Assembly (NCBI GenBank): GCA_963749655.1
Contig: CAVVOB010000014.1
Coordinates: 54,199-118,198, forward strand
Length of the DNA: 64,000 nt
Source of the DNA: Nitrospirota bacterium
GTDB taxonomy: Bacteria > Nitrospirota > UBA9217
Reading direction: 5' to 3'
Positions 911-48,400 of the stretch are shown one piece after another (positions within the stretch are counted from its first letter, which is position 1; each line of letters opens with the position of its first letter). The notes below the pieces were generated by a model that was not told the DNA's origin, searched no databases, and worked only from the letters and a program-made list of their open reading frames with translations. A program made the translations under genes and the position numbers.

Positions 911-1378
911 TTATTTCGATGTTACGCCATGATCGCCCAGAATTTTCCGTATCGCGTTGCTTATGGATTTTGTCTCTGTTCCCTCAAGGATCAGGAACGT
1001 CACTCTCTTATCGCCGCGAAACATCGGCAGCGTCACGGGTTGCGTGTGAATCTGCCTGGTGGAACCTGGGTCATGGATATCTATGTAAAACCAGATCCCG
1101 TCTGCGTCAGGATTGGGAACGCCGGAAACCCATCCGCCCCGACGTTTTGGCTCATGAGTTTTGAACTCATAGGAAATGCACAACCGGGCAGCGTCTGCGT
1201 TGTCCTTCACGGAAAAATTCTGCAATTGCGGGTACCGGTCCTTCAAAGCCTCGATATCCCGTCCGATGCCGAGGATCGCGTTTTCATGCGTTTCCTGCGC
1301 TCCAGCGAAAACACCGGAAGACAACAGCAGTGCGAAAACACATGCTGTCCCGGCGAAGGTGAACCTATCTGCAGCCAT
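911..1378 (-). CDS. secreted protein of unknown function (155 aa)
   Basis: Part of ORF 911..1438. The internal ATG at 1376-1378 is preceded by AGGAGA. Signal-peptide-like N-terminus MAADRFTFAGTACVFALLLSSGVFAGA. First gene downstream of motif promoter P1. Confidence 0.6.
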   Translation of the reverse strand: MAADRFTFAGTACVFALLLSSGVFAGAQETHENAILGIGRDIEALKDRYPQLQNFSVKDNADAARLCISYEFKTHEPKRRGGWVSGVPNPDADGIWFYIDIHDPGSTRQIHTQPVTLPMFRGDKRVTFLILEGTETKSISNAIRKILGDHGVTSK

Positions 1379-1594
1379 GAAGATCTCCTGGCGAAGGCGG
1401 AGGCGAGGCACGCTTTTCGTGTCAGTCTCGACCTGCACGCTAATGGTTTAGAACATGCTGCCGGTAAGAATTGATTTCCGGTATATAGAAACCTGCCACA
1501 TCTTTTGCTGTGTCCCAGGATTTTACTTTAGAGGAGCCCGGGCCGATGCCGGGACTCCAGCCGGGTTCATAGGTGTTAACAAAACATCGCCACA

Positions 1595-1651
1595 ACTATA
1601 TGCCTGTCATAGATGCCTGTCAATAATGACAAAAGGGTATTTTTAGGGTAG
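1595..1651 (-). promoter_or_regulatory. sigma70-type promoter P1 with upstream TACCC direct repeat
   Basis: Reverse complement reads CTACCCTAAAAATACCC-N11-TTGACA-N17-TATAGT. The -10 is at 1595-1600, the -35 at 1618-1623, and the repeats at 1635-1640 and 1646-1651. Confidence 0.55.
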
Positions 1652-3305: not shown

Positions 3306-4415
3306 GTGAAACCAACAGGGGCGATAGGGGTGGCTATTCTTCTCTCCCTCCTCTTTATCTCGTCCTGCGGAGGGAACGGGGGCGGAAAAACGCCGGTGAT
3401 AATTGTTAACCAGCTGGCCGTGGGTGCATCTGTGCGGGACACGGTTCCGCAGGGAGGGATCAACTATTACGCCGCAGCAGTCGTACCGGGAGCGCTGTAC
3501 AAGATCAGCATCACCGAACTGATCGACGACTCCGACCTGCTCGTCTTCGGAGCCGATGCCTCCCTGTCGCACCTCGCAACCTGCTCCATCGATACGACGC
3601 GCGTTTCCGGCACGACAACGCCGGAGGATTGCGTCATCGTTGCTTCCGCCAGTATGCTCTACTTCGGCGTTGATGGCACATATCTGACGACTGCGGGAGG
3701 GACCTATACGGTCGACATCGAGCGCCCGGGCCTTACCGGCGTCAACGCCTCCATCCCTCTCGCGGACACCGCAACGAGGACCGGACTGGGAATATACGCA
3801 GCGCCGGTCGTCCCCGGCCAGTCCTATACCATAGCAGTCACCGGACTGAACGACGATGCGGACCTTCACGTCTTCGGCGCCGACGGATCGTTCATGTCCC
3901 AGGCGTCCTGCTCCAGCGCCAACACGCAGATCATCGGGACCGCGCCGGAAGACTGCACGATCACGGCCACCGGAAGCACCCTCTATTTTGTGGTCGACGG
4001 TCTGTTCAGCTCCGCCTCGACCGTGTCCTACACCGCCATCGTTGCGTCTGCGCCGTCCGTTGCCGTTCCTGCAAATCAGGGTTCTATTGTCTCGCCCTCC
4101 AGCGTAGCCGTTGATGCTCCTCTCACCACCGGACAGGTCGGCTCGGCAGGAGACAGCTTCTACATTGTGTCCGGCCTGACATCGGGAGCGCGGTACACGG
4201 TCACGATAGCAGGCCTGACAGGCACCGCCAACCTCACCCTGTTCGGTAGCGACAGTACCTTTACAACGCCTGCCGCGTGCCTGATCGACAACACCTTCCT
4301 GGCAGGCACCTCGCCCGAGGCATGCACCCTTACTACAACAGGCGCGCTGTACTTTACCGTAGCGGCAGGTCCGAACAGCTCGGCCTATGTCGTTCTTGTT
4401 TCCCCGGGGCACTGA
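3306..4415 (+). CDS. lipoprotein with three tandem ~110-aa beta-sandwich repeats (PPC-like)
   Basis: GTG start behind GGGGAGG. Lipobox LLFISSCGG. Three repeats each carry DD(S/A)DL-x-VFGAD or TANLTLFGSD, followed by PE(D/A)C and LYF motifs. Confidence 0.7.
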   Translation: MKPTGAIGVAILLSLLFISSCGGNGGGKTPVIIVNQLAVGASVRDTVPQGGINYYAAAVVPGALYKISITELIDDSDLLVFGADASLSHLATCSIDTTRVSGTTTPEDCVIVASASMLYFGVDGTYLTTAGGTYTVDIERPGLTGVNASIPLADTATRTGLGIYAAPVVPGQSYTIAVTGLNDDADLHVFGADGSFMSQASCSSANTQIIGTAPEDCTITATGSTLYFVVDGLFSSASTVSYTAIVASAPSVAVPANQGSIVSPSSVAVDAPLTTGQVGSAGDSFYIVSGLTSGARYTVTIAGLTGTANLTLFGSDSTFTTPAACLIDNTFLAGTSPEACTLTTTGALYFTVAAGPNSSAYVVLVSPGH

Positions 4416-9434: not shown

Positions 9435-12400
9435 CTATGCCTTCTCGATGTTGACGAGGAAGGATTTGAACTCCGGTGTCTGCACGTTGGCATCTCCGAC
9501 GAACGGCGTCAGGGTGTTGGCGATGTAGCCGTTCTTGGCAATGCCCTTAAAACCCCAGTGGATCGGGATGCCTACATGATGAACGGTCTTGCCGTTCACC
9601 TGGAGCGACATAAGCCGCTTGGTCACCAGCGCCTTTGCCTTGACGAAGCCCCGCATGGACCACACCTTGATGAGGTCGCCGTGCTTGATGCCCTTCTCTT
9701 TGGCCAGCTCCTCGCCGATCTCCACGAACTGCTCGGGCTGCAGGATGGACGAGAGCTGCGTATGTTTCGTCCAGAAGTGGAAGTGCTCGGTCAGACGGTA
9801 CGTGGTGGCCGCATAAGGATAGTCCTTGCTCTTGCCGAGCATTTCCAGATCGTCCTTGAACACCCGCGCAGCCGGGTTGCTGATCACCTTGGGATGGAGC
9901 GGGTTCGTGTCGATGGGCGTCTCGAAAGGCTCATAATGCTCGGCGAACGGACCTTCCGCCATCTTATCCACGGCAAACAGCCTCGCCACGCCTTCGGGGT
10001 TCATGATGAAGGGGTTCATGGGATCGCCGGGCGGGACATCCGGTTTGAAGTCCGGCACGTCCACGCCGCCCCAGGCGGTCCCGTTCCAGCTGATGAGCTT
10101 CCGCTTCGGGTCCCACGGTTTCCCGGACGGGTCGTTCGAGGCGCGGTTGTACAGGATGCGCCGGTTGGCGGGCCAGGAGAACGCCCAGTTCAGCGTGTTG
10201 CCCAGGCCGGAGGGGTCCGAGTTGTCCCGCCGCGCCATCATGTTGCCCTTTTCCGTCCAGGAGCCCGAGAACAACCAGCAGCCGCAGCTGGTTGTGCCGT
10301 CGTCCCTGAGCTGGGCAAAGCCGTCCAGCTGCTGCCCCTTCTTTACGAGGACCTTTGTCTTGTCCTTGGGATCGGTTACGTCCTCCAGCGCCTTGCCGTT
10401 GTACTCCATCGCCAACTCCTCGGGCGCAGGCGAAAGCGGGATCTTATGGTTCCAGGTAAGGTTCAGGATCGGGTCGGGGAACGCGCCTCCCTCTTTTTTA
10501 TAAAGCTCGCGCAGCTTCAGGAAGATGCCGGCGATGATGTCGGCATCGACCTTTGCTTCTCCCGGAGGATTGGCGCCCTTGTAGTGCCACTGCAGCCAGC
10601 GGCCGGAGTTGGTGAGCGACCCGTTCTCTTCGGCGAAGCAGGTCGAGGGGAGCCTGAACACTTCGGTCTGGATCTTGGCTGGGTCCACGTTGTTGTGCTC
10701 GCCGTGGTTCTCCCAGAAGCACGAGGTTTCCGTTGCCAGGGGATCGATCACGACCAGGTACTTGAGCTTGGCCAGGGACCCGCCTACCTTGGCCTTGCAG
10801 GGGAAGGCTGCGAGGGGGTTAAAGCCCTGACAGAAGTAGCCGTTTACTTTCCCCTGGTTCATCAGCTCGAAGGTCTGGAGCACGTCGTATCCCTTGTCCA
10901 GCTTCGGTAGCCAGTCGAAGCACCAGTTGTTCTTTTTCGTTGCAGCATCGCCGAACCAGGCCTTCATCAGGCTGACATGGAACTTTTCGTAATTCTGCCA
11001 ATAGGACATCTGGCCTGGGCGCAGGGGCTTGAAGGCCCGTTTGCTGATATAGGTCTGGTAGTCTGTTTCTTTTTCGCCGGGAAGGGTGAGGTAGCCCGGC
11101 AAGAGGTTCGACAGGAGGCCAAGGTCAGTGAGACCCTGGATATTGGAGTGGCCCCTGAGCGCGTTCATGCCTCCGCCTGCCATGCCGATGTTGCCGAGCA
11201 GGAGCTGCATCATTGCCGCAGTGCGGATCATCTGCGAGCCCACGGAGTGTTGGGTCCAGCCCAGTGCGTACATGATGGTCAAGGTCCTGTCCGGCACCGA
11301 CGTGGTTGCGATGATTTCTGCCACCTTGAGGAAGGTTTCCTTGGGCGTGCCGCAGATATTGCTCACCGCTTCCGGCGTGTACCGGACATAGTGTTTCTTC
11401 AGCAGTTGGAACACGCATCGGGGATGTTTGAGGGTGGGGTCGACCTTTGCAAAGCCGTCAGCACCCATTTCGTACATCCAGCTTGCTTTATCATAGGACC
11501 GTTTTTCGGCGTTGTAACCGGAGAACAAGCCGTCATCGAAATGATAATCCTCGCGCACGATGAAGCTTGCGTCCGTGTAGGATTTCACGTATTCGTGCTG
11601 GATTTTGTCGCTACTGAGAAGGTAGTTGACCAGGCCGCCCAGGAAGGCGATGTCCGTGCCCGTGCGGAGGGGTGCATAAAGGTCTGCAATCGCCGCCGAA
11701 CGGGTGAAGCGGGGGTCTACTACGATGAATGTGGCTTTGTTATGGGCCTTGGCCTCGGTCACCCATTTGAAGCCGCAGGGGTGGGCCTCGGCGGCGTTCC
11801 CGCCCATGACGAGGATGACGTTGGCGTTCTTGATGTCAACCCAGTGGTTGGTCATCGCGCCGCGGCCGAACGTAGGGGCCAAACTGGCCACCGTGGGGCC
11901 GTGTCAAACTCGTGCCTGATTGTCGAAGGCCAGGATGCCGGTGCTGCGGACCGCCTTGTGGGTGATGTAGCCGGTTTCGTTGCTCGACGCGGAGGCTGCC
12001 AAAAATCCCGTGGTCAGCCAGCGGTTGACCGTGGCGCCGGCGGCGTTCTTCTTGATGAAGTTCTTGTCCCGGTCGTCTTTCATCAGGCGCGCGATCTTGC
12101 TGAAGGCTTCGTCCCAGGTTATGCGCTTCCATTCATTCGTCCCGGGGGCTCGGTATTCCGGGTATTTGAGCCGGTTCGGGCTGTGAACAAAGTCCACCAG
12201 CCCTGCGCCCTTCGGGCAGAGGGTGCCGCGGTTCACGGGATGGTCCGGGTCGCCCTCGATGTGAAAGATCGATGACTCGGCGTTCTTCGCCCTGTCCCCC
12301 ATGCTGTGCATGATCAGGCCGCAGCTCACCGAGCAGTAGGGGCAGGTATTGCGGGTCTCGGTGCTGCGGGTAAGCTTGAACTCGCGCACCTCAGCCTCCG

Positions 12401-12497
12401 CCTCGCGCGGGGAAAAGCCGAGGGCCGCAACGCTGGAAGCCCCCAGTCCTGCGGCAGAAACCTTGAAAAACTGTCTCCGTGTCACCTGCATTTTCAT
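9435..12497 (-). CDS. fdnG: selenocysteine-containing formate dehydrogenase catalytic (alpha) subunit with Tat signal
   Basis: ORFs 11904..12497 and 9435..11891 are one frame, joined by TGA at 11904-11906. The context [28 protein letters not shown] is the FdnG/FdoG selenocysteine site. Tat signal TRRQFFK. Confidence 0.9.
11868..11906 (-). other. UGA selenocysteine codon plus candidate SECIS hairpin
   Basis: UGA at 11906-11904 on the mRNA strand. Immediately 3' lies CACGGCCCCACGGUGGCCAGUUUGGCCCCUACG, which can form an apical GGCC-AGUUU-GGCC hairpin at the distance expected for a bacterial SECIS. Confidence 0.6.
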
Positions 12498-15494: not shown

Positions 15495-15550
15495 CTCCCC
15501 CAAAAATACCCTGTCGATTTTCTTGACAAAATCATCACTGTCTATATAAT
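15495..15550 (+). promoter_or_regulatory. sigma70-type promoter P2 with upstream TACCC direct repeat
   Basis: CTCCCCCAAAAATACCC (15495-15511), then N11, TTGACA (15523-15528), N16 and TATAAT (15545-15550). Confidence 0.6.
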
Positions 15551-15737
15551 CGAGGCAGTTCGATTTAATGATCGTTTCCTCACCGTATAGGTCCAACGGG
15601 ACCGCGCCCGGCTTCGCGACAATCTCCGTCGCAGGTCCCGTATCTTTTCTGAAGTGCATCCTGTTCCCCTCAGCGTGCGTCTAACTCGCCATAAACAGCA
15701 ATGCGCGCTTGCGCGCTACTCGACAGGAGAACATCGC

Positions 15738-16223
15738 ATGAGGACCGAAAATTATTCACGGCGGGAATTCTTAAAGACCTTCGCGCTGATATCGTCGGCG
15801 CCGCTCCTGGTCAACGTGCTTGCCGCGTGCAGTGATCCCGTGGCCGGTGCCGCATACGGACCCCCGCCGTACACCCAGGTCTCAGTGACCGGAATATACT
15901 TTCTCGACGCGCAGTCACATACCGTGAAGCTTGCGGACAATCAGAACGTGCCTGCCCACACGTCCTTTACCATCCAGTTCAACACTGCGATGAACATGGA
16001 TTCCGTTCTTACCGCGATAACGTTCGTTGACTCAGGCAACACTCCTGTTGCATTTGCCGCACTTGCGCAGGACGAGCGGACCATGGGGCTGACTCCGTCT
16101 GCCGATCTCGCGCACAACAGCACCTATACGCTGAGTGTGAACAATAACGCCGTGGATGCGAGTGGGAACTCACGGCTTCTTGTTGACGCGAATGCAACGG
16201 CAACGTTCAAGACCGGGGTCTGA
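15738..16223 (+). CDS. Tat-signal lipoprotein with a single Ig-like (SbsA/Big_5-type) domain, paralog A
   Basis: ATG 15738 behind AGGAGA. Consensus twin-arginine motif SRREFLK. Lipobox VLAACS. Its Ig-like region aligns with paralog B (HTSFTIQFNTAMNMDSV, YTLSVNNNA, ATFKTG). Confidence 0.75.
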   Translation: MRTENYSRREFLKTFALISSAPLLVNVLAACSDPVAGAAYGPPPYTQVSVTGIYFLDAQSHTVKLADNQNVPAHTSFTIQFNTAMNMDSVLTAITFVDSGNTPVAFAALAQDERTMGLTPSADLAHNSTYTLSVNNNAVDASGNSRLLVDANATATFKTGV

Positions 16224-32223: not shown

Positions 32224-32324
32224 TCCCCCAAAAATACCAGGTTGCAGTCTGATTTGAATTCCCCGCAATACCCTTAAAATACCCCATCAAGGACGTTGAC
32301 ATTTTCTCAGGCCGCGCCTATATT
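32224..32324 (+). promoter_or_regulatory. sigma70-type promoter P3 with three to four TACCC repeat copies
   Basis: Distal TTCCCCCAAAAATACCA at 32224-32239. Proximal ATACCC at 32268-32273 and 32279-32284, then N11, TTGACA (32296-32301), N17 and TATATT (32319-32324). Confidence 0.6.
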
Positions 32325-32386
32325 CGACCCGATACCGCAGGTGATTCCTAGACCCTTTGGATAATGTGCAGCACTTCGAGAATAGC

Positions 32387-35300
32387 ATGACGAAGCCGAC
32401 TATTGCAAAAATCACCCGCCCGCGTCCTGCCAGATTGTTCCTGCGCAGGCGTCTCTTCCGCCAAATCGACAGGGAGCGGGACCGGCCGATCGTCTGGGTG
32501 GCCGCGCCTGCGGGATCAGGCAAGACCACGCTCGTCACGAGCTGGCTCGACGAGCGTAAAATGCCCTGTCTGTGGTACCAGGTGGACGCAGGCGACGGCG
32601 ATCTTGCCTCGTTTTTCTACTACCTGAACAAAGCCGTAAACAAAGCGGCCCCGCGTCACAGAAAAGCGCTGCCCCTCCTCACGCCGGAATACCTGCAAGC
32701 TCTCCCTCTCTTTACGAAACGCTATTTCGAAGAAGCATTCCACCGCCTCAAGTCCCCTGCCGCGGTCGTATTCGACAACTTCCAGGATGCGCCGCAGGAG
32801 TCCGGCTTTCACGAGATGCTCGCCCATGCGCTTGAATCCGTTCCCCCCGGCGTAACGGTCTTTATCCTGAGCCGTAGCAGTCCTTCCCCGCAGTTTGCGC
32901 GGCTGCAGGCAAACAACAGACTGCAGGTGCTGGGATGGGACGAAATCCGTTTTACTCTCCAAGAAACGAAGGCGTTGGTGAAAATCGGGGGGCGAACGCG
33001 CCTGTCCGGCGAATCCCTCGCCCTTCTTCATAAAAAATTCGAGGGGTGGGCAGCCGGGCTGGTACTGCTTATCGCGGGAAAAAAATTCAAAGCGCTCGGG
33101 CAAGACCTTGAAGAAAGCTTCGAACCGGCGAACGTGTTCGATTATTTCGCGAGCGAGATCTTCGAAAAGACCGATGAAACGGTCCGGTCTTTTCTCCTCA
33201 GAACCTCGTTCCTGTCCAGGATCGGAGCGGAGATTGCCGGACGTCTGACCGGCAACAACCAGGCCGCGCAGGTCCTGGACAGGCTCAGCCGCAATCATTT
33301 TTTCACCAACAAGCACCGTGACGGCGCCGCGGTGTTTTACCAATATCATCCGCTCTTCAGGGAATTCCTGCAGGCCAGGGCCGAGGCGGTTTTTCCCCCG
33401 GAGGAAATCAATGCCGTCCGCATGCACGCCGCTCTAATCATTGCTGATTCCGGGCAAACCGACGAGGCAATCGACCTCCTGCTTCTTTCCGGCCGATGGG
33501 ACGAAGCCACCAGGCTGATCCTGGCAAACGCTCAGGCGGTCACCGCGCAGGGCAGAAACAAAACTCTCGAAGGATGGCTCAGGCGGCTGCCAGCCGAGCG
33601 CGTGATGCAAGACCCATGGTTGGGTTACTGGCTTGCTCTGTGTCGGATGCTCTTCAATCCGATCGAGGCTCGCCTGCTCCTCGAAAAGGCATTTACGCAG
33701 TACAACGAACATGACGACGCCATGGGCTTGTATCTGACCTGGGCCGGGATCGTCGATACGTATTTTCTTGCCTGGAATGGGTTCAGCCCGCTTGCGGAGC
33801 GCTGGATTCCCGAGTTCGAGACGTTGTCCAAAAGACATCCCTCCTTCCCGTCGTTGGAAATGGAGGCGCGTGTGACACTCAGTTTCTTCATGGCGCTGTT
33901 CTACGCGAACCCGCAGTATTCCGATCTGCCGAAGCTGGCGAAGCGCCTCACCCAGATCATGCTCGACAGCGACACCCATTCTTTGCGATTTGCTATCGGG
34001 AGCAACCTCGTCATGTATCACGCCTGGATGGGGCCCAGTGCCGGCGCTGAGTTCATCATTGACCTTCTGCAACCGGCCGTCCGGCGCTCCGACATCGACC
34101 CGCTGGCATTGCATTACTGGTTCGGCATGACGGCGGTATATGCGTCGCTTTCCGGCGACCACGAGGCCTGTCTCGCGAGCATCGCCCGGGGCATCGCGCT
34201 CGGCGAGAAAACGGGCGTGCGTCCGTTCGAGCATACCCTCTGTGCACAGGGCGCCTTCTGCGCCATGACACAGGGGGACATGGCGGAAGCGGACCGTTTT
34301 ATTGCAAAAGTCGCAGCCATTGATTCACCCCGCAGCCTGGACAAGGCCCTTTATCATCACCTCGTCGCCCTGGCGGCATGGCATCGGGGCGATTGGAAGA
34401 GCGCGGCCGAACATGGCGAACGGGCATTGCGTTTATCCGAGAAGGACGCTTTTCCCATAACGATTGCGTTTACGCGCCTCGATCTCGCCGTCACCTGGTT
34501 CGAGATGGGGCGCATATCGGAGGCGGAGCAGGCTCTGGCGCGCGCGCTTACGGAAAGCATCGGCATTATGCGCGTGGAATTCGCCTGCCGGCTGTTCCAG
34601 TCCTGGTTTGCGTTTGAACAGGGCGATGAAGCGCGCGGTATTGCTTCGCTGCGGCAGGCGCTTGCCATCGGCGCCAAGCAGGGCTTTGTCAGCTTCTGGC
34701 GCTGGCACCCGAAGATCATGTCGCGCATCTGCGCACGGGCGTTGGAGGAGGGCATCGAGACGGACTACGTCAGGGATCTGATTCGCAGACGCAGTCTTCT
34801 TCCCGAAGGACTGCTGACGGACGGCGAACAATGGCCCTGGCCCGTGAAGATCAATACGCTCGGCCGCTTTGAGATATTCAAGGACGGGAAGCCCTTCCGC
34901 TTTTCCCGGAAGGCGCCCAAAAAGCCCATCGAGCTGCTCAAGACGCTCATTGCGTTCGGCGGACGAAACGTAAGTGAAACCAGGTTGAACGACACGCTCT
35001 GGCCCGACGCGGCCGGCGACGCGTCGCACCGGGCGTTCAATATCACCCTCATCCGTCTCAGGGAGTTGCTCGGTCTGAAGGAAGCGATCCTTCTCAGGGA
35101 CGGGTGCGTTACGCTCGACGAGCGGTATTTTTGGATCGACGTCCGGGTGTTCGAGAGCCTGCTGAATGAAGCGGTCGAAAAAGCGGAACGCGAGCGGTCC
35201 TCAGCCGTCAGGCGTTCATTCGAGAGCGGACGCCGGAGTGTGAAACCCGAACAGGGTCCCGGCTTTTTGCGCAAAGCCTTCAACATCTACAAAGGACCGT

Positions 35301-35629
35301 TTCTTCCCGATGAGAAGGGGCTGTGGGCGATATCCCTGCGCGAAAGACTGAGGGGCAAGTTTCTCGCCCTGATCGAGAAATCAGGCCGCTCCTGGGAAGA
35401 CCAAAGGAAATTTCCGAAAGCGCTCGAGTGCTACCAAAAGGGGCTCGAATGCGACGACTTGTTCGAGGAATTCTATAAACGGACCATGATCTGCTACCTG
35501 CGACTGGGCCGCAAGGCGGAAGCCGTCTCCACCTACCGCAGATGCAAAAAAACGCTCGGCGCCCACGGTCTCGACCCGTCTCTTGAAGCTGAAACAATCT
35601 ACAACAAGCTGATTTCTGAGAAAAAATAG
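32387..35629 (+). CDS. STAND-type P-loop ATPase with helical/TPR-like middle region and C-terminal SARP-type winged helix plus BTAD
   Basis: ATG 32387. Walker A APAGSGKTTLV (32510-32527 region). Walker B-like AAVVFDNFQD. C-terminus LGRFEIFKDGKPF...LLKTLIAFGGRNVSETRLNDTLWPD (OmpR/SARP wHTH), then YKGPFLPDE...YLRLGRKAEAVSTYRRCKKTLGAHGLDPSLE (BTAD). Confidence 0.8.
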   Translation: MTKPTIAKITRPRPARLFLRRRLFRQIDRERDRPIVWVAAPAGSGKTTLVTSWLDERKMPCLWYQVDAGDGDLASFFYYLNKAVNKAAPRHRKALPLLTPEYLQALPLFTKRYFEEAFHRLKSPAAVVFDNFQDAPQESGFHEMLAHALESVPPGVTVFILSRSSPSPQFARLQANNRLQVLGWDEIRFTLQETKALVKIGGRTRLSGESLALLHKKFEGWAAGLVLLIAGKKFKALGQDLEESFEPANVFDYFASEIFEKTDETVRSFLLRTSFLSRIGAEIAGRLTGNNQAAQVLDRLSRNHFFTNKHRDGAAVFYQYHPLFREFLQARAEAVFPPEEINAVRMHAALIIADSGQTDEAIDLLLLSGRWDEATRLILANAQAVTAQGRNKTLEGWLRRLPAERVMQDPWLGYWLALCRMLFNPIEARLLLEKAFTQYNEHDDAMGLYLTWAGIVDTYFLAWNGFSPLAERWIPEFETLSKRHPSFPSLEMEARVTLSFFMALFYANPQYSDLPKLAKRLTQIMLDSDTHSLRFAIGSNLVMYHAWMGPSAGAEFIIDLLQPAVRRSDIDPLALHYWFGMTAVYASLSGDHEACLASIARGIALGEKTGVRPFEHTLCAQGAFCAMTQGDMAEADRFIAKVAAIDSPRSLDKALYHHLVALAAWHRGDWKSAAEHGERALRLSEKDAFPITIAFTRLDLAVTWFEMGRISEAEQALARALTESIGIMRVEFACRLFQSWFAFEQGDEARGIASLRQALAIGAKQGFVSFWRWHPKIMSRICARALEEGIETDYVRDLIRRRSLLPEGLLTDGEQWPWPVKINTLGRFEIFKDGKPFRFSRKAPKKPIELLKTLIAFGGRNVSETRLNDTLWPDAAGDASHRAFNITLIRLRELLGLKEAILLRDGCVTLDERYFWIDVRVFESLLNEAVEKAERERSSAVRRSFESGRRSVKPEQGPGFLRKAFNIYKGPFLPDEKGLWAISLRERLRGKFLALIEKSGRSWEDQRKFPKALECYQKGLECDDLFEEFYKRTMICYLRLGRKAEAVSTYRRCKKTLGAHGLDPSLEAETIYNKLISEKK

Positions 35630-39996: not shown

Positions 39997-41007
39997 ATGG
40001 TATATACGCCGAAATATAAAATTACGTCCCGTCTGGCAGGCCTGCTTGAGAAGATCGCCGAGCTGCGGACGAAGGTCGAATTATCACCAATTTCCGTCCA
40101 GTGGATGCCGCGTTTGGAAAGAGACGCATTCGCCCGCCTTGCCCATACCTCGACTGCCATTGAAGGCAATCCCTTAACGCTCAAGGATGTGGAGATCCTG
40201 TCACAGGGAGTAGACCTCCCGATGGTTCAGCGCCGGTTCAAAAACGAGGTGCTTAACTATCTTGCCGCGCTCCGGCATATCACCGATCATTCCGGAAAGC
40301 GGACTATTGCCGTGAAGGACGTTCTCCGGCTGCACAGCATAGTAGGCAAGGATGCGCTCGAACGGGAGCCGATCGGGGCATTCCGGGACTATCAGGTGGT
40401 AATCCGACAGCATAAACCGCCGAGATATCAGGATGTAATGCGTCTGGTCACTGAGCTTATGGACTGGCTTAATTCCGAGGCGCGGGATCTACCCGCCGTC
40501 ATATCCTCGGCCATCCTGCACTACCAGTTCGAGCATATTCACCCCTTCGGCGACGGAAACGGCAGGGTGGGCCGGCTTCTATCCACATGGGAGCTATACC
40601 GCAGGAAGATCGACACCTATCACATCTTTTCCATTGACGAGGTCTATTGGGAAAAACGCGAGAAATATTTCTCCGCGATTCGTTCTGTCCAGGAGACGGG
40701 AGGAGATTTAACCGGATGGATCGAGTTTGTCGCAGATGCTGTCGTAGTTTCACTGGAAAAGGCATGGAAAAGAATAGAGGTGATCCGGGGCGACACCGCG
40801 GCGGACGCGGAAGAGCTGATTTTGACGCCGAAACAGGAGAGACTCCTGACTCTCCTTCGTCACGCGCCGCTCGGGATCAACGATATTATGAAGGAGCTTC
40901 GCGTTAAAACGCGGGCTGGGGCACACTATATAATTAAACCGCTTATTGAACATAAACTAGTGGCAAGAAAGGGAGGCCATAAAACAGGCAGATACATTAT
41001 CGCATAG
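39997..41007 (+). CDS. Fic family protein with N-terminal inhibitory-helix motif and C-terminal winged helix
   Basis: Fic motif HPFGDGNGRVGR at 40540-40575. S-x3-E-G motif STAIEG at 40150-40167. C-terminal ...KELRVKTRAGAHYIIKPLIEHKLV. Confidence 0.85.
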   Translation: MVYTPKYKITSRLAGLLEKIAELRTKVELSPISVQWMPRLERDAFARLAHTSTAIEGNPLTLKDVEILSQGVDLPMVQRRFKNEVLNYLAALRHITDHSGKRTIAVKDVLRLHSIVGKDALEREPIGAFRDYQVVIRQHKPPRYQDVMRLVTELMDWLNSEARDLPAVISSAILHYQFEHIHPFGDGNGRVGRLLSTWELYRRKIDTYHIFSIDEVYWEKREKYFSAIRSVQETGGDLTGWIEFVADAVVVSLEKAWKRIEVIRGDTAADAEELILTPKQERLLTLLRHAPLGINDIMKELRVKTRAGAHYIIKPLIEHKLVARKGGHKTGRYIIA

Positions 41008-41261
41008 ATACTGTGAGGAAATTCTGCGTCTCGCCGTCACTGCTTTTTCACTCATTCGTCCAAATCTGAAACTACTTCCTGTAGTCAACGATTTCGTTCC
41101 CCTCAAGAATATTGCATTGTTCACTCCGTAACTGATAACCGCCTCTGTCGCTCCATCTCCTGTTGCCCTCTCCTTTTCAATTCAGGCCGACTATACTGTG
41201 AAATATATGAGCTTCTCCCTTTCTTGAAACCCCAGAGGCAGTTCCGTAAAGGAGGATCATT

Positions 41262-42057
41262 ATGAATATGACAGAAGCTATCCATGTTTTTAAGCAGCAG
41301 CATTTAATCGCGCTAAAAAACCGCACGGGAATAAGTTATGCATCCATCTTGGAACGTCTCCAGAAAGATTTTGCTGATCGTCCTGTTGAATCAATAAAGC
41401 CGGATGATATCGTCCACTTCCTTGATTTGTTCACTTCCGGACGGCCAAGAGCACACGCCGATTAAGGTATGCTCAGACCAAGGCATTCTTTAATTTCATT
41501 ATTAATGAATGCGAAGTGGACCTGAAGAATCCCTCGCCTACCCTTTGATCGCTAAACAGTTCAAGAATCCCAAACAAGCAGCACGAAAGATCCTGGACAA
41601 GGAGGTCGTTGATGAAATAATCTATAGCGCAAGATCACCGAGGGACAGGCTGATCCTGGAACTTCAGGCATGATGCGGTCTCAGAATAGGCGAGGTGTTG
41701 AAGTTAAAAGCATCAGACGTTTCGGACAGAAAACTTACGATCCAGGAGCCTAAATCCGGAAAGGAGAGCGAGCTTACTTTTATGCCGGAGCAAATCGCAA
41801 AACGCTTATCCGAGTATATTACCGCGACCAGCATTGGGCCAGAGGAGAGGCTATTTCCGATTTGCTATTCAACTGTACGAGCGTTAATAAAAAAAACTTT
41901 CGGACAAATTCCGAATAAACATTTCCCCTCACGACTTCAGGCGCCATTCAGCAACATATGCCAGCCGCAATGGGTGCCATTGGAAATCGTCTCGAAAGTA
42001 CTTTTGAGACATAACGATCTAAAAACAACCCAAGTTTATTCTGGGCAAGATCACTGA
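41262..42057 (+). pseudogene. tyrosine recombinase/integrase remnant
   Basis: Integrase segments are spread over several frames: RDRLILELQA-TGA(41671-41673)-CGLRIGEVLKLKASDV, then HDFRRHSATYASRNG, then VPLEIVSKVLLRHNDLKTTQVY. There are several frameshifts plus an in-frame stop. Confidence 0.75.
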
Positions 42058-42240
42058 TTCTGAAGCAATCCGCTGGCTTGATATATTGCACGGGAAATAG
42101 ATTGATGGAGGACAGAACAACGCCTCTGGGTTTATTATGCCTTTTTATCATCGTTAAGAATATTTCGCACTCTCGTATTAGATTCGCAATAGCAAATATT
42201 GTGCAAAATAGTGTGATTTTTTTCTTTAAAGTATGATTTT

Positions 42241-42297
42241 ATACCCCAAAAATACCCCGCCTAGGCCATTGACAGGAATTCCATATTACTATATTAA
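42241..42297 (+). promoter_or_regulatory. sigma70-type promoter P4 with upstream TACCC direct repeat
   Basis: ATACCCCAAAAATACCC (42241-42257), then N11, TTGACA (42269-42274), N17 and TATTAA (42292-42297). TATATT at N15 is an alternative -10. Confidence 0.6.
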
Positions 42298-42469
42298 TGC
42301 TTCATCGTAACGCGACATGTCTGAACTGACCCCCTCCGTTTGGACAGTCGTATGCCCTAATCTCTCTGAGTCCAATTATCCTAGAAAAAAAGAAACAATA
42401 CGTGTGGACTTTTTAGGGAGCTGTATTTACGGCGGGTCAATATTATGGCTGCGCCTCAGGAGGATGAAA

Positions 42470-45400
42470 ATGAGTTTACGTCTATTTTCAGTCACGCGTA
42501 TTTTTCTTTTTTCCGTCTTTATAACCGCGGCAGCTGCCTCGCCGGCGCTCTCTTTTGATACGGTCAAAGTAGTGCAAGCAGACGGATTCTTCACATTCCT
42601 GAATGCCAGGCAAATCGTCCGGACATCCTCAGGAAGAATCTACTATTTCACTGGAAGCGGAGCTGGAACGGGTCGCAGCGGATGGATTATGGTGAATACC
42701 TCGGTTGATGGCCAGACGTGGAATCTGCTTGAAAATCATTCATCATGGTATGAGCCTTCCGGCGTCGGTGTCGGCGTGGACAGTCGAAATATCATACATA
42801 TGATAGCGTTTGACGGAACCAAAATACCTTATTACCAGAAATACAACACATTGGACAGCCCCAAGGGCGACGGTTCCTGGGAACCGGTTGAACCACTGGA
42901 GAGTACTGCTGCTCTCTACGGCGCCTGGCAATGCGCTCTCGCATTGGATGCGAACGATGTCCCGCATGTCGTATATCAGTTGTCTGAAAGATACAAGGGA
43001 GAGTATAGAGGGGTCGTCTATTATGCAAACAAGGTCGGCGGAACATGGCATAAGACTGCGATTTGGCCGAAAGAGATTGGCAGCTTTGTGGACAGCGCCA
43101 CCATCGCCGTGGGGCCGGACAATATTCCTTATGTTCTCATGGGTACAAAGATCCTGAAAGGAAACGCGAACGACCCGACCGTTTTCGAATCTCAAGATCT
43201 CGGAGGCGGCAATTCTTTCGTGATCCACCAGAACGGAGATGTCAGAGTGGCATTGACGTTGAATGGTAACTATGCCAATTATCTTCACGACAACACGCAG
43301 GCGTGGACTTCAGGGTGGACAATGTCCGATTCCGGATCCCCGGACGCAGGCGGGCCGCTGATTCTGGTTGACGACGTTCCCTATGAAATAGAACTTCTCA
43401 GCGACGGCATCTGGCTGCGGAAGGAATTCGAAGCTCCTTTTCTTTTTTCAGCGAGAACAGGATATTCTAACTGGTGGAGCGTGACCACGAGATGGAGCTT
43501 CTATAATCACTATGACCCCGGAATGATTGATATCGGAACTCTTGGTCAGGACTCCTATAACTTGGGTTATTTCTATTTGTATGCGAACAATGTCCAGGTT
43601 ACGCCTCCCGATCCCCCTCCGGTGCCGACGGTGATTGATTTCAGCGGAGCCCCCTTGAAGTGGGTTACACCGGTCTATGCTGTATTCGCGGATAAGTCGA
43701 CTTTTCCGGCCGGCAGAACCGCTGTCTCTTGGGCATGGGACTTTGAAAACGATGGGACTGTGGATTCCACAGTGCAGAATCCCACGCACGTCTATACGAC
43801 ACCCGGAACCTATTCCGTCAAGCTGACGGTAACCGATTCGAGTGGAGAGGTGAACTCGAAGGTGAAGGCCGACTATATCGTGGTCGAGACAGATACAGAC
43901 GGTGACCGCTACGGCGATTCGCAGGACAATTGCCCGACCGTTTACAATCCCGATCAGTCTGACATGGACAACGACGGTATCGGCGACGCCTGCGATCAAA
44001 ACCAGGACCTCGTGAAACAAGCGGTTTACCGCACCGGGCTCAAGAAGGAGACTGCGAGCGAGGGTGCCGGAACCGACGTTGCCGCGATCATGATAGACGG
44101 GCTGTACACTGTCGCGAAGCGAATTCAGAAATCCACGGCAGGATACGACATACTGAGCTTCCGGTCCGATCTGGAGTCATCTCGTCTTGCCCAGTGCAAG
44201 ATAAAGCTTTATGTAAACGCCCTCTACAACAATGCTCCCCAGACGGTCCATGTTTATGCATACGCATCTGATGGTCTCGCGGTCCAGACGGGCACGGTGC
44301 TTAATTTCACTCTTTCCCCGGGCTGGAATACCCTAGATTTGAAGTCCCTTCTGGCGTCTATGGATGGTTTCGGCTTCATGAAATTCCGCGTTGCAGCGCC
44401 GGCGAACTGGATCGATATTTCGGAAGGGTCGATAGCGGCCGCGTATAGAGACACATGGGAAATGTCCGTTTCGCCCACGAGCATTGACTTCGGGAGCATC
44501 GAAACTGTCGGCTCCCAGGCGCGCAGGGTCATCGTGAAAAACGTCGGTACGGGGGACCTCATCGTCGGATCCTTTCCATCGCTGGCGGCGCCTTTTTACC
44601 TCAAGTCTGATGAGTGTTCGGGCATGACGCTCGGATCGGGTTTATCGTGCAAGGTATTCGTCAAGTTCGCGCCCACATCGAACGGAACGTACACGGCTTC
44701 CTTGACCGTTACTTCGAATGATGCCGATCATCCGGAGATCGGGATTTCGCTGACAGGGACGGCGGTCAGCGGATCCGGCATTACGGGCACGGTCGCGGAC
44801 GCATCCACAGGCCTCCCCCTGTCCCAGGCCGATATCACTTTCACGATGAAAAGACCGGGAAGTTCGAATCCGGATGACTACTATTACATGTATGGTAACG
44901 CGGTGTCCGCCATTGATCCGGACACTGATCTGGGGTTGTCTTTCACCGCAACGGAGGCCGGCGCTGTTCAGAAAAATGATGAGAGCAAGGTCGTCATCGA
45001 TGGCTCGTTGCTGCTTAAATTCAGAAATCCCTACAACGTCTCCGACCGGGTGAAGTTGACCTGGAACGGACTGGGGGGATATCATGCCAGCGAGGTAACG
45101 GGCCAGAGCTTTGTGTCGGGCATGACGGGAACGCTCACCAAGGTAAGTATTCCTCTCCTACGTAATTTCAGCGTCGACTCCCTGACCGGTACGGTCGTCC
45201 TCTATCTCAAGTCCGCCCTAGGCGCGGAGCAGTCCGCGATCCTCGCGGCAAGCGACCCCGTCGATGTCAACGAACTGTCTGACAGCGTTCCCGCGTGGTT
45301 CGACTTCACGTTCTCAACACCCGCACGCGTTACGAGCGGACAACCTTATTACCTGGAGTTGTACGATACAGGCAGGTACTGGGGAACGGGCAGCGCTTTT

Positions 45401-48400
45401 GATTACGCCAAAGTCTCCTGGCCCTATGCCTATCCCAGTCCCTACCGGAACGGGCGGGGCTACATTCGAACGGACGGACTGTGGAACACGACCTACGGGT
45501 CCATGACCGATTGGTCCTTTGCCTTCAAAACGTATGTCGATTTCCAGCTCGATCAGGATCAAGCATCGTTCTGCTGCCAGGATATGTACGTCCAGGGGGT
45601 GGAAGGGCAGGAGTATGTACTGGCAAGATTCAACCGGCCTGCGGCAGGATGGGAATGGGCTGCATGGACCAATTCGGCAAACGGTTATGATGATACGACC
45701 TTGGAAACAACGTTGAGCGGGAACATGGGGAACTATTATAACGTAGACGGGTGGATCTCTGCGCGTGTGTACAACTACCAACCTTACATCTCAGGATCGA
45801 TATATACACCGTATCTTGCAACTGATCAATTCAGCGTCGAATTCGAAGGAGACAGGACGGTCCGCACAGACGGCGCAGGAGCTTTTTCCCTGTCATCCCT
45901 GCCGAGCGGGACCTACTCGGCCGTCGTGTCTGCACCAGGCTACGCTCCGCAGACGGTAAGCGGCACCCTGGTCCCGGGCCAGACCCAGGTCCTGAGCGTG
46001 AGGCTCACTCCCAATCCGCAGCTCCTGCTCGAGATCACCTCTCCGGCCAACGGAGCCATGCTAAGCGGGACCTTCGTCCAGGTGACGGGCAGGGTGACCA
46101 ATGACGCGTCCGTTACCGTGAATGGCACAGCGGCTTCCGTGTCGAATGGATCATTTGCGGTGGTTATCTATCCCGTCGACGGACAGAATACGATCACGGT
46201 CAATGCCCTGGATCAGTACGGCCAGACGGCAACGCAGACCCTGACCATAACGTGCAGCACCACGTCGAGGATGCTCCTGAACTACACGCTGCTCGATTTC
46301 GGCAAGATAACGAGCGGAACCACGAGCACTCGCGACATAACGGTAGAGAACAACAGTACAACCGCACTCTCCCTCGGCACGGTATCCCGGCCGGCTGATC
46401 CTTTCTGGGTCATCGCAGACACCTGCTCCGGTAAGCTCATTTCTCCGGCCGCAACCTGTACAATCAGCGTTGAGTTTGCCCCCACTTCGGATGGAACCTG
46501 GTACGGGACCCTCACCATTCCGTCAAACGACAGCAACCAGCTTCCCGTGAGCGTAGCTCTGCAGGGGGAAGGGGCGGCTTTTAGCGGCTACTATCTGCCT
46601 GACACGGGCGAACAGAACAATTACCACACCATGAATCCCATGGCCTTTGTCACGACTGCGGTCTCGGCATCTGACAGGAACACGGGGCTCACGTGGCAGC
46701 GGCAGGACGATGCTTCACTCAGGATCTGGACCGAGGCCCAGGGCTACTGCGACAACATGGTCCTGGATGGCTTCGACGACTGGAGGCTTCCTACTGCCCT
46801 TGAACTGACCACGATCGTTGATTACGGAAAGACGGGAACAGTCATCGATGGACAGGTCTTTCCGAATGCTCATGCTGCGGACTATTGGACCGTCATTTCC
46901 CAGACCGATACTGCCTGGGCAGTGAACTTCAGCCTGGGCACCGGGTCCGCGATCTCGTCGTCATCCAAAGCCTATACCCGCTGTGTCCGCGGCACGCGGC
47001 TGTCCCAAGGGTACTTCGAGAACTATGGCAACGGCATAAGGCAAGACAGTTATTCCGGGCTCATGTGGCTCGAGACCTACTTGACCGCGGGAGACAATTC
47101 GATTTCAACGGCACTGAGCACCTGCGACGCCGTCACCTACGGCGAATATTCGGACTGGCGTCTTCCGAATATCAAGGAACTCATCTCCAACACCTATACG
47201 GCCTGCTATCTCAACGATTGTGCCAACTGGTCCTCAACGACGGTGCAGGCGGATACCAACAAGGGCTATACGTATAACGGCTTTGCAGGGACGGACAACA
47301 AAAGCGCTTCGCATGTTTTCCGGTGCGTGCGCGGAGGGAACGTTCGGCCCGCGGATGAACAGGCCCTTGCCCTCACCCCCGCGGTTGCCGACTTCGGGTC
47401 TATTGAGACCGGTTCGGCTGGGTCAGTAAGTGTTACCCTGACGAACAAGGGAACAGCCTCGCTCGTCATCGGTTCGCTTTCTGCGCCAGTATCACCATTC
47501 ACGATGATGTCCGACGGATGCTCAGGTCGCATGCTCGCTGCGAACGGATTCTGTTCGTTCACGCTGGGCTTTGCTCCCACTGTAGCCGGCGTCGTTTCAG
47601 CGACTGTTACCGTACCGTCAAACGACACAGACAATCCGTCAGAGGCCTATTCTTTGATCGGTACCGGCACTTCGCCCAATGCCGTTCTCCAGGGCACGAT
47701 CACAGACGCCCGAACGGGGGCTGCCGTGGACTCTGCGCTCCTTTCCCTGACCGACGGACATTCGACGGTCCATTCTGCAACAACATTATCAAATGGAACT
47801 TTCTCCCTGGGGAGCATTGCCGCAGGAGCATATACCGGCAGCGTATCAAAAGATGGATATGCCCAGTACACCTTCTCGGGAATTATGGCTTCCGGCCAGA
47901 CAGTCGTGATGAACATGCTGTTAACGCCGCTCCCGCCGGTCATAAGCAGCGTCGTTGCGAGCAACCCGACTACTACTTCCGTTGTCATCACCTGGACCAC
48001 GGACAAGGCTGCGAACAGCACTGTGGATTACGGCACAACGACTGAATACGGAAGTACGGTGACTGATACGGCTTACGTCACGAGCCACAGTGTTGCAATA
48101 TCCGGCCTGACACCGTCAACAGCCTACCACTTCAGGGTCACCTCAACCGAGCTGAGCGGCCTCACAACCACGTCGACGGACAACACCTTCTCGACCTTGA
48201 ACCCGATTTCTATTACAATACAAACACCCCAGAACAATGGCACAATATCCCGGCCCGATGTCATGGTGACGGGAACCATAACGAACAGCACCGGAAATGA
48301 GACTGGGATCACGGTGAACGGCATGGTAGCGACAATGGAAGGAAATCAATTCATCATAAACCACGTGCCATTGACCGAGGGCGCGAATACCATATCCGTC

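Follow-up and report, generated by a model that had tools for sequence, protein, structure and literature searches.

The window analysed here, a 64,000-nt stretch of the Nitrospirota bacterium contig CAVVOB010000014.1 (assembly GCA_963749655.1, positions 54,199 to 118,198), contains five promoters, P1 to P5, that share one upstream element: two TACCCnW heptamers in direct repeat with an invariant A4 between them (written ATACCCTAAAAATACCCCATCG), a 7-4-7 arrangement with an 11-bp phase. This is a clade-wide cis-element specific to a lineage of uncultured Nitrospirota, and it very probably serves as an operator, in phase with the core promoter, to which a trans-acting factor binds. The factor that binds it may be a 207-aa response regulator of the NarL/FixJ type, for which comparative evidence argues. 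The STAND regulator with a C-terminal SARP unit that is encoded just downstream of P3 (32387-35629), which an earlier sequence-only reading of the window had proposed as the binder, is judged from its homologues and their sites to be a member of the regulon and not the protein that binds the operator. The lineage consists of uncultured kin of Sulfobium/Thermodesulfovibrionia from soil, groundwater and sediment, and a literature search returned no described Nitrospirota promoter motif of this type and no paper on a STAND regulator with a C-terminal SARP unit.

Operator structure and promoter geometry

When the window was re-read, the coordinates and sequences of all five sites agreed with those that the sequence-only reading had picked out by eye. 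Exact TACCC-N11-TTGACA occurs four times (P1 to P4), P5 carries the variant TTGCAA, and the earlier statement that the window holds no further arrangement of this kind stands. A search for TACCCNWAAAATACCC-N11-TTGMMA with at most one mismatch returned exactly P1 to P5 in the window and nothing in any of 100 dinucleotide-preserving shuffles. The repeat alone (TACCC-N6-TACCC, at most one mismatch) was found seven times in the window against 1.26 expected, and five of the seven are P1 to P5. We also built a position weight matrix (PWM) from about 199 sites outside the window and scanned it over the window and 50 shuffles of it. The five promoters scored 20.9 to 34.2 bits, the additional operator copy 5' of P3 a marginal 10.4 bits and the next real candidate in the window 2.8 bits, while the shuffle maxima averaged 7.0 bits and reached 16 bits at the highest. 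The window scan placed no copy of the motif within a plausible coding region, a finding that had been named beforehand as bearing on the proposal. The window operators lie at about −62 to −47, 11 nt 5' of the −35, and sigma-70 hexamers (a TTGACA-like −35 and a TATAAT-like −10, 16-18 nt apart) are present at all five sites. The P2 operator has one mismatch in its distal heptamer, and a promoter scanner reported the P3 core promoter as TTGACA-N17-TATATT with 11 of 12 matches.

The same arrangement recurs throughout one clade. A scan of one genome per species (185,579 species) with CCCNWAAAATACCC-N11-TTGACA gave 69 matches, 62 of them in 32 genomes labelled Nitrospirota or Nitrospirae (a count that includes one bin labelled Betaproteobacteria). 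The remaining seven are scattered among unrelated phyla, and about nine chance matches were calculated from 18.5 specified bases and 1.2e12 positions. A metagenome scan with ATACCCNWAAAATACCCCATC, a pattern that contains no −35, gave at least 120 loci, with 106 non-redundant sites among the matches listed. The motif thus stands at about 195-200 non-redundant promoters of this Nitrospirota lineage, with a consensus of A-TACCC-t-W-AAAA-TACCC-caTCg that is near-invariant over 17-21 nt. Positions that the genome-scan pattern left free are conserved as well, namely ATA before the first CCC and CATCG after the second TACCC, and in the Nitrospirota matches a hexamer resembling TATAAT, likewise conserved, stands 17 nt beyond the −35. 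The earlier proposal of a regulon of shared sites is supported by this recurrence of one geometry at about 195 promoters of a single clade, even where the search held no −35, and the site is also kept at orthologous promoters, those of genes for response regulator-PilZ (RR-PilZ), Lcl_C and SGNH-like proteins.

In the metagenome sites, which were found without a −35 in the pattern, a hexamer that agrees with TTGACA in five or six positions stands at offset 11 in 56 of 106 cases, and every other offset accounts for three or fewer. The lock between operator and core promoter is therefore free of ascertainment bias. The −10 elements of these sites peak at offsets 33-34 (40 of 106), with a sharp second peak at 23 (8 of 106). 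In class 1, to which all window sites belong, the heptamers lie at −62 and −51 and are followed by the −35; in class 2 the repeat is moved 11 bp (one helical turn) nearer, the −35 is missing and the −10 is TGn-extended (e.g. ctgcTATAAT). The element has heptamer slots at about −62, −51 and −40, of which class 1 uses the first two and class 2 the last two. Orthologous secreted SGNH/GDSL-like genes keep the class 2 architecture in several lineages (L100, L149 and L184; also L011 at 3883-3898; L numbers designate related loci), so the class 2 register is itself conserved at orthologous promoters. Weak −35 hexamers (TATACA, TTTACT, TGCGCT) follow some copies, with the −10 still present. The description of these sites as sigma-70-type promoters with a protein-type operator in phase with the core holds up without fixing the −35.

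Promoter function receives independent, if indirect, support at six related loci outside the window, where Rfam c-di-GMP-I (cyclic di-GMP) riboswitch aptamers begin 2-8 nt after the start, which is predicted about 7 nt downstream of the −10. On the same contig as one of these aptamers there is also a HEARO RNA (HNH endonuclease-associated RNA; L141 201-436, 125 bits), which is unrelated to the operator. The 430-nt leader of P5 was searched for riboswitches and RNA families; it matched no Rfam family and its folding is not unusual.

Direct TACCC repeats have a 6-nt spacer in 203 cases, with zero to two cases at other spacings. Inverted TACCC/GGGTA pairs likewise peak at a 6-nt spacer (14 cases), and within the N11 GG[GT][TG]A is confined to position 6. 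It is seen there in 20 of 195 sites, where the −40 slot is taken up by an inverted heptamer (GGGTA) and a 7-2-7 palindrome centred near −43.5 results. The claim that the spacers are unrelated in sequence is correct for the window and does not extend to the clade, in which the N11 is non-random (CATCG after the repeat, or a GGGTA/GGTGA end). Operators also occur in tandem in the same orientation: two full sites lie 34 nt apart at L178, and in the window a degenerate additional copy lies 44 nt (four helical turns) 5' of the P3 operator, with no −35 after it. Tandem copies about three or four helical turns apart suggest cooperative occupancy at some targets.

Rigid placement of this kind might also be expected of a lineage-specific UP-like element that RNA polymerase reads directly, through the C-terminal domain of its alpha subunit (alpha-CTD) or an associated general factor, without a dedicated regulator. 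The fixed position relative to the −35 and the consensus core promoters at many sites are consistent with this idea, and the A-tract coincides with the distal UP subsite in class 1 (about −56 to −52) and with the proximal one in class 2 (about −45 to −41). However, the C-triplets are invariant, and neither they nor the roughly 26-plus bits of specificity are required for minor-groove binding by alpha-CTD; the sequence-only reading had raised the same objection, that an A tract acting as an UP element fails to account for the CCC. Moreover, not one rRNA, tRNA or ribosomal-protein promoter is found among the about 195 sites, strict sites number a handful per genome, an inverted heptamer variant exists, and the sites go with weak, activator-type core promoters. 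Direct reading by the polymerase therefore seems improbable.

About 27 of the 195 sites, before unrelated genes in different genomes, share a conserved block of about 85 nt directly 5' of the operator. Within this block lies an inverted repeat, GTTGA-N12-14-TCAAC, whose variants appear to be compensatory, and the sites that have the block also share a similar −35/−10 spacer. No open reading frame (ORF) and no Rfam family was found in the block, and a search for a conserved divergent gene beside the motif gave no ORF cluster. Possible readings of it are a site for a second factor, a promoter that points the other way, or a promoter cassette that spreads by duplication. Such shared flanks before unrelated genes would fit the idea that the element as a whole is a copied cassette, a duplicated or mobile segment rather than a selected binding site. 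Nevertheless, the 17-mer is invariant among flanks and spacers that are unrelated in the window and at most sites, conservation ends abruptly at the borders of the motif, and the element has two phased registers and an inverted third heptamer, all of which makes a copied segment extremely improbable. If it were one, new genes, including horizontally acquired low-GC surface-protein genes, would be wired into one circuit. Taken as a single alternative, a lineage-specific third core-promoter element read by alpha-CTD or a general factor, or a duplicating cassette made up of repeat, ~85-nt block and spacer, also has a low probability.

Three further architectures were considered. Sigma-54 −24/−12 elements (TGGCAT-N5-TTGC) lie 78 nt after the motif start at L004, L029 and L030, and in weaker form at L006, forming tandem two-sigma promoters. 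As a general rule, a sigma-54 architecture was rejected, since −24/−12 elements follow the motif in only 3-4 of 86 sites. A site for integration host factor within the N11 was rejected on inspection because its register does not fit, and MraZ-type TGGGN repeats on the opposite strand were set aside for a probable mismatch in period and gene set.

Candidate binding factors

Three of the metagenome sites precede a gene for the 207-aa NarL/FixJ response regulator (sequence stretches MRLIIVEDDPLLLENL...THTVHTHIKKIYEKLQ...). The protein is represented by more than 120 clusters, the best 120 of which show 82-100% identity, and the named sources are Nitrospirota or Nitrospiraceae. Its recognition helix is invariant, and the solved structure that matches the protein best is E. 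coli NarL (1a04, E = 4e-29). The gene lies in a conserved synteny of aconitase, rubrerythrin, Usp, a multi-PAS HisKA_3 kinase and the regulator. The operator occupies the same position before the regulator ATG in all nine lineages fetched. It is embedded there in the 3' terminal part of the kinase gene, and the regulator gene is followed by another operator. The promoter has a poor −35 (TGGAAT, TAGATT, TGGTAA and others) and a TGn-extended −10. Because the ATG follows 6-7 nt after the −10, the regulator mRNA appears leaderless, and judging by these features the regulator's own promoter appears to be of a leaderless, activator type. At every regulator-gene site the N11 ends in GGGTA, and each site therefore contains a 7-2-7 palindrome such as TACCCCG-CG-CGGGGTA. 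Across the clade sites, the half-sites also resemble those of NarL: the distal one reads TACCC followed by T/C and A/T, and the proximal one TACCCCA, with position 7 often A and not T.

Co-occurrence of operator and regulator holds even in JBLMWN01 (L037), the sole metagenome-assembled genome (MAG) labelled Betaproteobacteria that has a true site, where a regulator orthologue lies in the same synteny. This bin (MAG281; L037 is JBLMWN010000075.1 and L201 is JBLMWN010000001.1), labelled 'Betaproteobacteria bacterium', has the operator, a gene of the STAND-SARP type, and kinase and regulator genes in the synteny typical of Nitrospirota. Its label is probably wrong, the bin being mislabelled or chimeric, because it has the operator together with the regulator orthologue in the same synteny.

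If the 207-aa protein is the binder, the adjacent multi-PAS HisKA_3 kinase would phosphorylate it, and the phosphorylated regulator, dimeric or as monomers in tandem, would occupy the heptamers on a single helix face. It would then recruit or stabilise RNA polymerase, contacting alpha-CTD when bound at −54.5 or sigma region 4 plus alpha when bound at −43.5, and the predicted outcome at the promoters would be activation of transcription. The regulator would also amplify itself from its internal, leaderless, activator-dependent promoter.

Several observations weigh against this assignment and this mode of action. The base-contacting residues of NarL are K188, V189 and K192; in the alignment to 1a04, K188 is changed to H and V189 to T, and only K192 is kept. 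NarL-family dimers classically prefer inverted 7-2-7 sites, whereas the dominant arrangement of this operator is a direct repeat, and an inverted heptamer or 7-2-7 site is present at none of the five window sites. The regulator gene itself is not in the window. Conservation alone cannot part a binder from a target, because the sites of the RR-PilZ, Lcl_C and SGNH-like genes are conserved too, and variability inside the heptamers and the A-tract is underestimated because the collection scans fixed most motif positions. Finally, four of the window's five promoters combine a consensus −35 with a good −10 and should fire even when no activator is present; at these promoters the factor might have a modest effect, a modulating role or even a repressing one. 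With these points included, we hold it slightly more probable than its negation that the binding factor is the 207-aa NarL/FixJ-type regulator.

The operator might instead be bound by another lineage-specific factor, either an OmpR/PhoB-type winged-helix protein or a MarA/AraC-like monomer with two helix-turn-helix (HTH) motifs, with the NarL-type regulator being only a conserved target. Direct repeats with 11-bp phasing are classic for winged-helix regulators, the rigid class I/class II placement resembles that of MarA and SoxS, and the site is kept at many orthologous targets besides the NarL-type regulator. However, the surroundings of about 70 sites contain no gene of the Trans_reg_C type, and tblastn with the C-terminal domains of PhoB and OmpR found no gene for an OmpR/PhoB-type winged HTH (wHTH) in the window and the near-site sequence of L001-L069. 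The NarL-type regulator is the only conserved DNA-binding protein that turns up repeatedly as a target, and the inverted 7-2-7 variant and the NarL-like heptamer fit a GerE-type dimer better. We therefore consider this alternative unlikely.

The protein encoded at 32387-35629 consists of an N-terminal P-loop NTPase (AAA_16, NPHP3_N), a MalT-type winged helix, TPR repeats and a wHTH followed by BTAD. The sequence-only reading had pointed to its C-terminal ~260 aa as the DNA-binding part, and this region is indeed a SARP unit: the AfsR SARP domain (8hvr_I) aligns over 250 residues (residues 50-299 of the last 310 aa, E = 9.5e-4), and Pfam identifies BTAD (E = 6e-14). An OmpR-type wHTH followed by BTAD is the arrangement that defines the SARP family, although the unit is C-terminal here and N-terminal in actinobacterial SARPs. 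This STAND-SARP protein could bind the TACCC repeats through its wHTH-BTAD part and activate the five promoters including its own, which would make them a local autoregulated regulon. Besides the true SARP unit, several observations are compatible with such a regulon: the 11-bp period of the TACCC half-sites fits the direct-repeat spacing of SARP sites (11 or 22 bp), SARPs do bind 11-bp-phased direct repeats (PMC10936776), the sites are unusually dense around the gene (five in 64 kb, with up to 5-6 strict matches per genome in other MAGs), and the motif also lies 5' of two more STAND-SARP genes, at L037 and L112.

Homologues, recognition helices and site geometry all argue against binding and autoregulation by this protein. 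The closest homologue (76% identity) has exactly the same recognition helix, yet the 477 nt 5' of its gene contain no motif; alone this is weak evidence because its 4.9-kb contig may be from outside the clade. No motif was found 5' of the 47% and 45% homologues either, and conserved autoregulation of the STAND-SARP gene was rejected on these grounds. In the 32 motif-bearing genomes the best homologues show 41-45% identity, a value typical of paralogues in this family, and different recognition helices, with none above 50%, while the motif is invariant. The family as a whole gave more than 4,500 matches (E <= 1e-20), of which only two are closer than 50% to the window protein. The three motif-preceded STAND-SARPs (window, L037 and L112) have 24-38% mutual identity and different recognition helices (SHRAFNITLIRLR, QRANLASLIYRVR and AHTSFNTTLHRLR), whereas the motif is near-invariant, so they look like targets. 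A STAND-SARP gene lies within 4 kb of the motif at one of the 69 genome-scan loci only, and the window protein is not conserved together with the sites. A distance of 8 bp separates the 3' repeat of SARP promoters from the −10, and the repeat overlaps a poor −35 (PMC10936776), while here the distance from repeat end to −10 is 34 nt (class 1) or 23 nt (class 2); by this position test the operator is not of the SARP type. Overall, a regulon run by the 32387-35629 protein is very improbable. STAND proteins with a C-terminal SARP unit (NTPase-WHD_MalT-TPR-wHTH-BTAD) form an uncharacterised family in Nitrospirota, Geobacteraceae and other 'Deltaproteobacteria' metagenomes.

Target genes and features of the window

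We surveyed the genes under the operator by running Pfam on 40 downstream ORFs and clustering 192 sites. Envelope and exported proteins among the targets include lipoproteins, CsgG, PEGA, Lcl_C, an outer-membrane-protein barrel, fn3, CarboxypepD_reg, a PQQ propeller, DUF4124, MscL and Band 7. Signalling targets comprise GGDEF, GGDEF-EAL, RR-PilZ (seven sites), RR-HD-GYP, single-domain receivers (eight), CheA, a PAS kinase and PAS-LuxR, and the regulators include the three STAND-SARPs. The largest target family is that of receiver-domain proteins (21 of 192 sites), which includes the 207-aa GerE-type regulator. The surveyed targets contain no nitrate-respiration genes. The riboswitches and the GGDEF, EAL, HD-GYP and PilZ targets suggest that the regulon is intertwined with c-di-GMP signalling, and the target set suggests a master switch for a surface/biofilm lifestyle.

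Within the window, the genes downstream of the sites encode exported proteins, the regulator aside, as had been proposed: their products have signal-peptide or lipobox N-termini and Big_5, PKD, Lcl_C and Ig-like domains. In the P4 target the signal peptide follows an internal Met, and an Lcl_C protein is also a motif target at L054, L028, L078, L108 and L138. Coordinates of all promoters, targets and related features are listed in Table 1.

Two further features of the window were observed. The stretch at about 40000-54000 has a G+C content of 46-50%, compared with about 57% elsewhere, and holds a Fic-domain gene (39997-41007), the 2238-aa gene, P4 and P5. Although it uses the lineage-specific operator, this stretch may have been acquired as an island. 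A SECIS_3 element (11851-11909, minus strand, 81 bits) lies at the junction of the same-strand ORFs 9435-11891 and 11904-12497 (minus strand), which indicates, from sequence features, a selenocysteine protein made by in-frame UGA readthrough. This putative selenoprotein may, as a guess only, be formate-dehydrogenase-like.

An operator that is near-invariant and rigidly placed makes the regulon readable from genomes, and the exact promoter predictions can be used in metatranscriptomics. Naming a two-component system as its likely controller gives a concrete, testable proposal. For annotation, the lesson is that a plausible regulator encoded closest to a site need not be the one that acts on it. 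The result is a useful clade-wide regulon of an uncultured lineage but no new principle.

Table 1. Positions of the operators, promoters, downstream genes and related elements (window coordinates for the window; locus coordinates for L numbers; PWM scores in bits)
Feature	Sequence	Position	Strand	Details	PWM
P1	window	1595-1651	−	operator TACCCTAAAAATACCC 1650-1635; −35 TTGACA 1623-1618; −10 TATAGT 1600-1595; predicted start near 1588	28.0
P2	window	15495-15550	+	operator TCCCCCAAAAATACCC 15496-15511; −35 TTGACA 15523-15528; N16; −10 TATAAT 15545-15550; predicted start near 15557	20.9
Degenerate additional operator copy	window	32224-32239	+	TCCCCCAAAAATACCA; marginal alone	10.4
P3	window	32268-32324	+	operator TACCCTTAAAATACCC 32269-32284, then CATC; −35 TTGACA 32296-32301; −10 TATATT 32319-32324; predicted start near 32331	34.2
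P4	window	42241-42297	+	operator TACCCCAAAAATACCC 42242-42257; −35 TTGACA 42269-42274; −10 TATTAA 42292-42297; predicted start near 42304	32.2
P5	window	52531-52587	+	operator TACCCTAAAAATACCC 52532-52547, then CAT; −35 TTGCAA 52559-52564; −10 TACAGT 52582-52587; predicted start near 52594	30.7
P1 target	window	911-1438	−	175 aa, no Pfam family; internal Met, then signal-peptide-like segment FAGTACVFALLLSSGVFAGAQE	
P2 target	window	15654-16223	+	Big_5 (bacterial Ig-like) protein; twin-arginine-type signal SRREFLK; lipobox-like LAAC	
P3 target	window	32387-35629	+	1080-aa STAND regulator with C-terminal SARP unit	
P4 target	window	42317-49033	+	2238-aa surface/adhesin-like protein; Lcl_C, HYDIN/VesB Ig-like, PKD, CarboxypepD_reg, fn3	
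P5 target	window	53023-55092	+	689-aa lipoprotein MMKKLLSLAVSVLLLTALSAC, PKD-like domain	
Regulator-gene promoter site	L198	5939-6003			
Regulator-gene promoter site	L196	5939-6003			
Regulator-gene promoter site	L134	1964-1899	−		
Regulator-gene promoter site	L201	3672-3737			
c-di-GMP-I aptamer behind motif promoter	L016	662-741		Rfam	
c-di-GMP-I aptamer behind motif promoter	L018	3059-3138	−	Rfam	
c-di-GMP-I aptamer behind motif promoter	L043	6336-6415		Rfam	
c-di-GMP-I aptamer behind motif promoter	L104	332-412	−	Rfam	
c-di-GMP-I aptamer behind motif promoter	L141	12611-12690		Rfam	
c-di-GMP-I aptamer behind motif promoter	L165	3903-3981		Rfam	
~85-nt block, example	L004	2355-2470			
~85-nt block, example	L027	558-673	−		
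~85-nt block, example	L030	666-781			
~85-nt block, example	L034	3997-4112			

Comparison with known systems

The OmpR/PhoB boxes, such as the pho box and the cyanobacterial RpaB site HLR1, resemble this operator in having similar half-sites one helical turn apart and a position-dependent effect, 5' of or overlapping the −35. They differ in that no winged-helix response regulator is encoded near the present sites, and in that the half-site and its inverted variant fit a GerE-type HTH better. The UP element, an A/T-rich stretch characteristic of strong housekeeping promoters that alpha-CTD contacts at −40 to −60, shares with the operator its location relative to the −35 and an A-tract at the distal or proximal subsite. 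In contrast to an UP element, the operator has high-information G/C positions, serves a restricted set of non-housekeeping genes and has an inverted-heptamer variant.

SARP operators (the afs box of AfsR and the sites of ActII-ORF4 and DnrI) are likewise tandem direct repeats with an 11-bp phase, and a SARP-domain protein with STAND NTPase and TPR modules is encoded beside one of our sites. Here, however, the repeat ends 34 (or 23) nt from the −10 and usually lies 5' of a consensus −35, the NTPase-TPR-SARP order of the window protein is the reverse of that in AfsR, and the comparative evidence does not tie the 32387-35629 protein to the motif. This protein shares with the MalT/LAL STAND activators the P-loop STAND NTPase, the MalT-type winged helix (PF25873), the MalT-like TPR sensor and a C-terminal DNA-binding output. 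It differs from them in that the output is a SARP wHTH-BTAD unit and not a LuxR-type HTH, and in that the STAND-SARP family, with the more than 4,500 matches noted above, is greatly expanded in Nitrospirota and Geobacteraceae metagenomes.

NarL and NarP recognise heptamers with the consensus TACYYMT. The operator described here has the corresponding half-site, TACCC(C/T)n, and at 20 of the 195 clade sites an inverted partner lies 2 bp beyond the heptamer (TACCCCG-CG-CGGGGTA). Engineered high-affinity NarL binding was obtained with TACCCCTAAAGGGGTA, whose heptamer is TACCCCT, and the activating 7-2-7 sites of NarL lie at −40 to −49 (napF) and −38 to −47 (yeaR) (PMC4549865); the clade palindrome, with its centre near −43.5, is placed like these two. 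The candidate regulator belongs to the NarL/FixJ family, with NarL as its best solved relative, and its partner is a HisKA_3 kinase. Unlike NarL/NarP sites, most sites here are direct 7-4-7 repeats with an invariant A4, set at a fixed distance of 11 nt from a good −35. The targets include no nitrate-respiration genes, the candidate has other residues at two of the three base-contacting positions, and the multi-PAS kinase is not NarX/NarQ-like. We consider it likely that the element functions as a heptamer operator of the NarL/NarP type and that its regulator belongs to that family.

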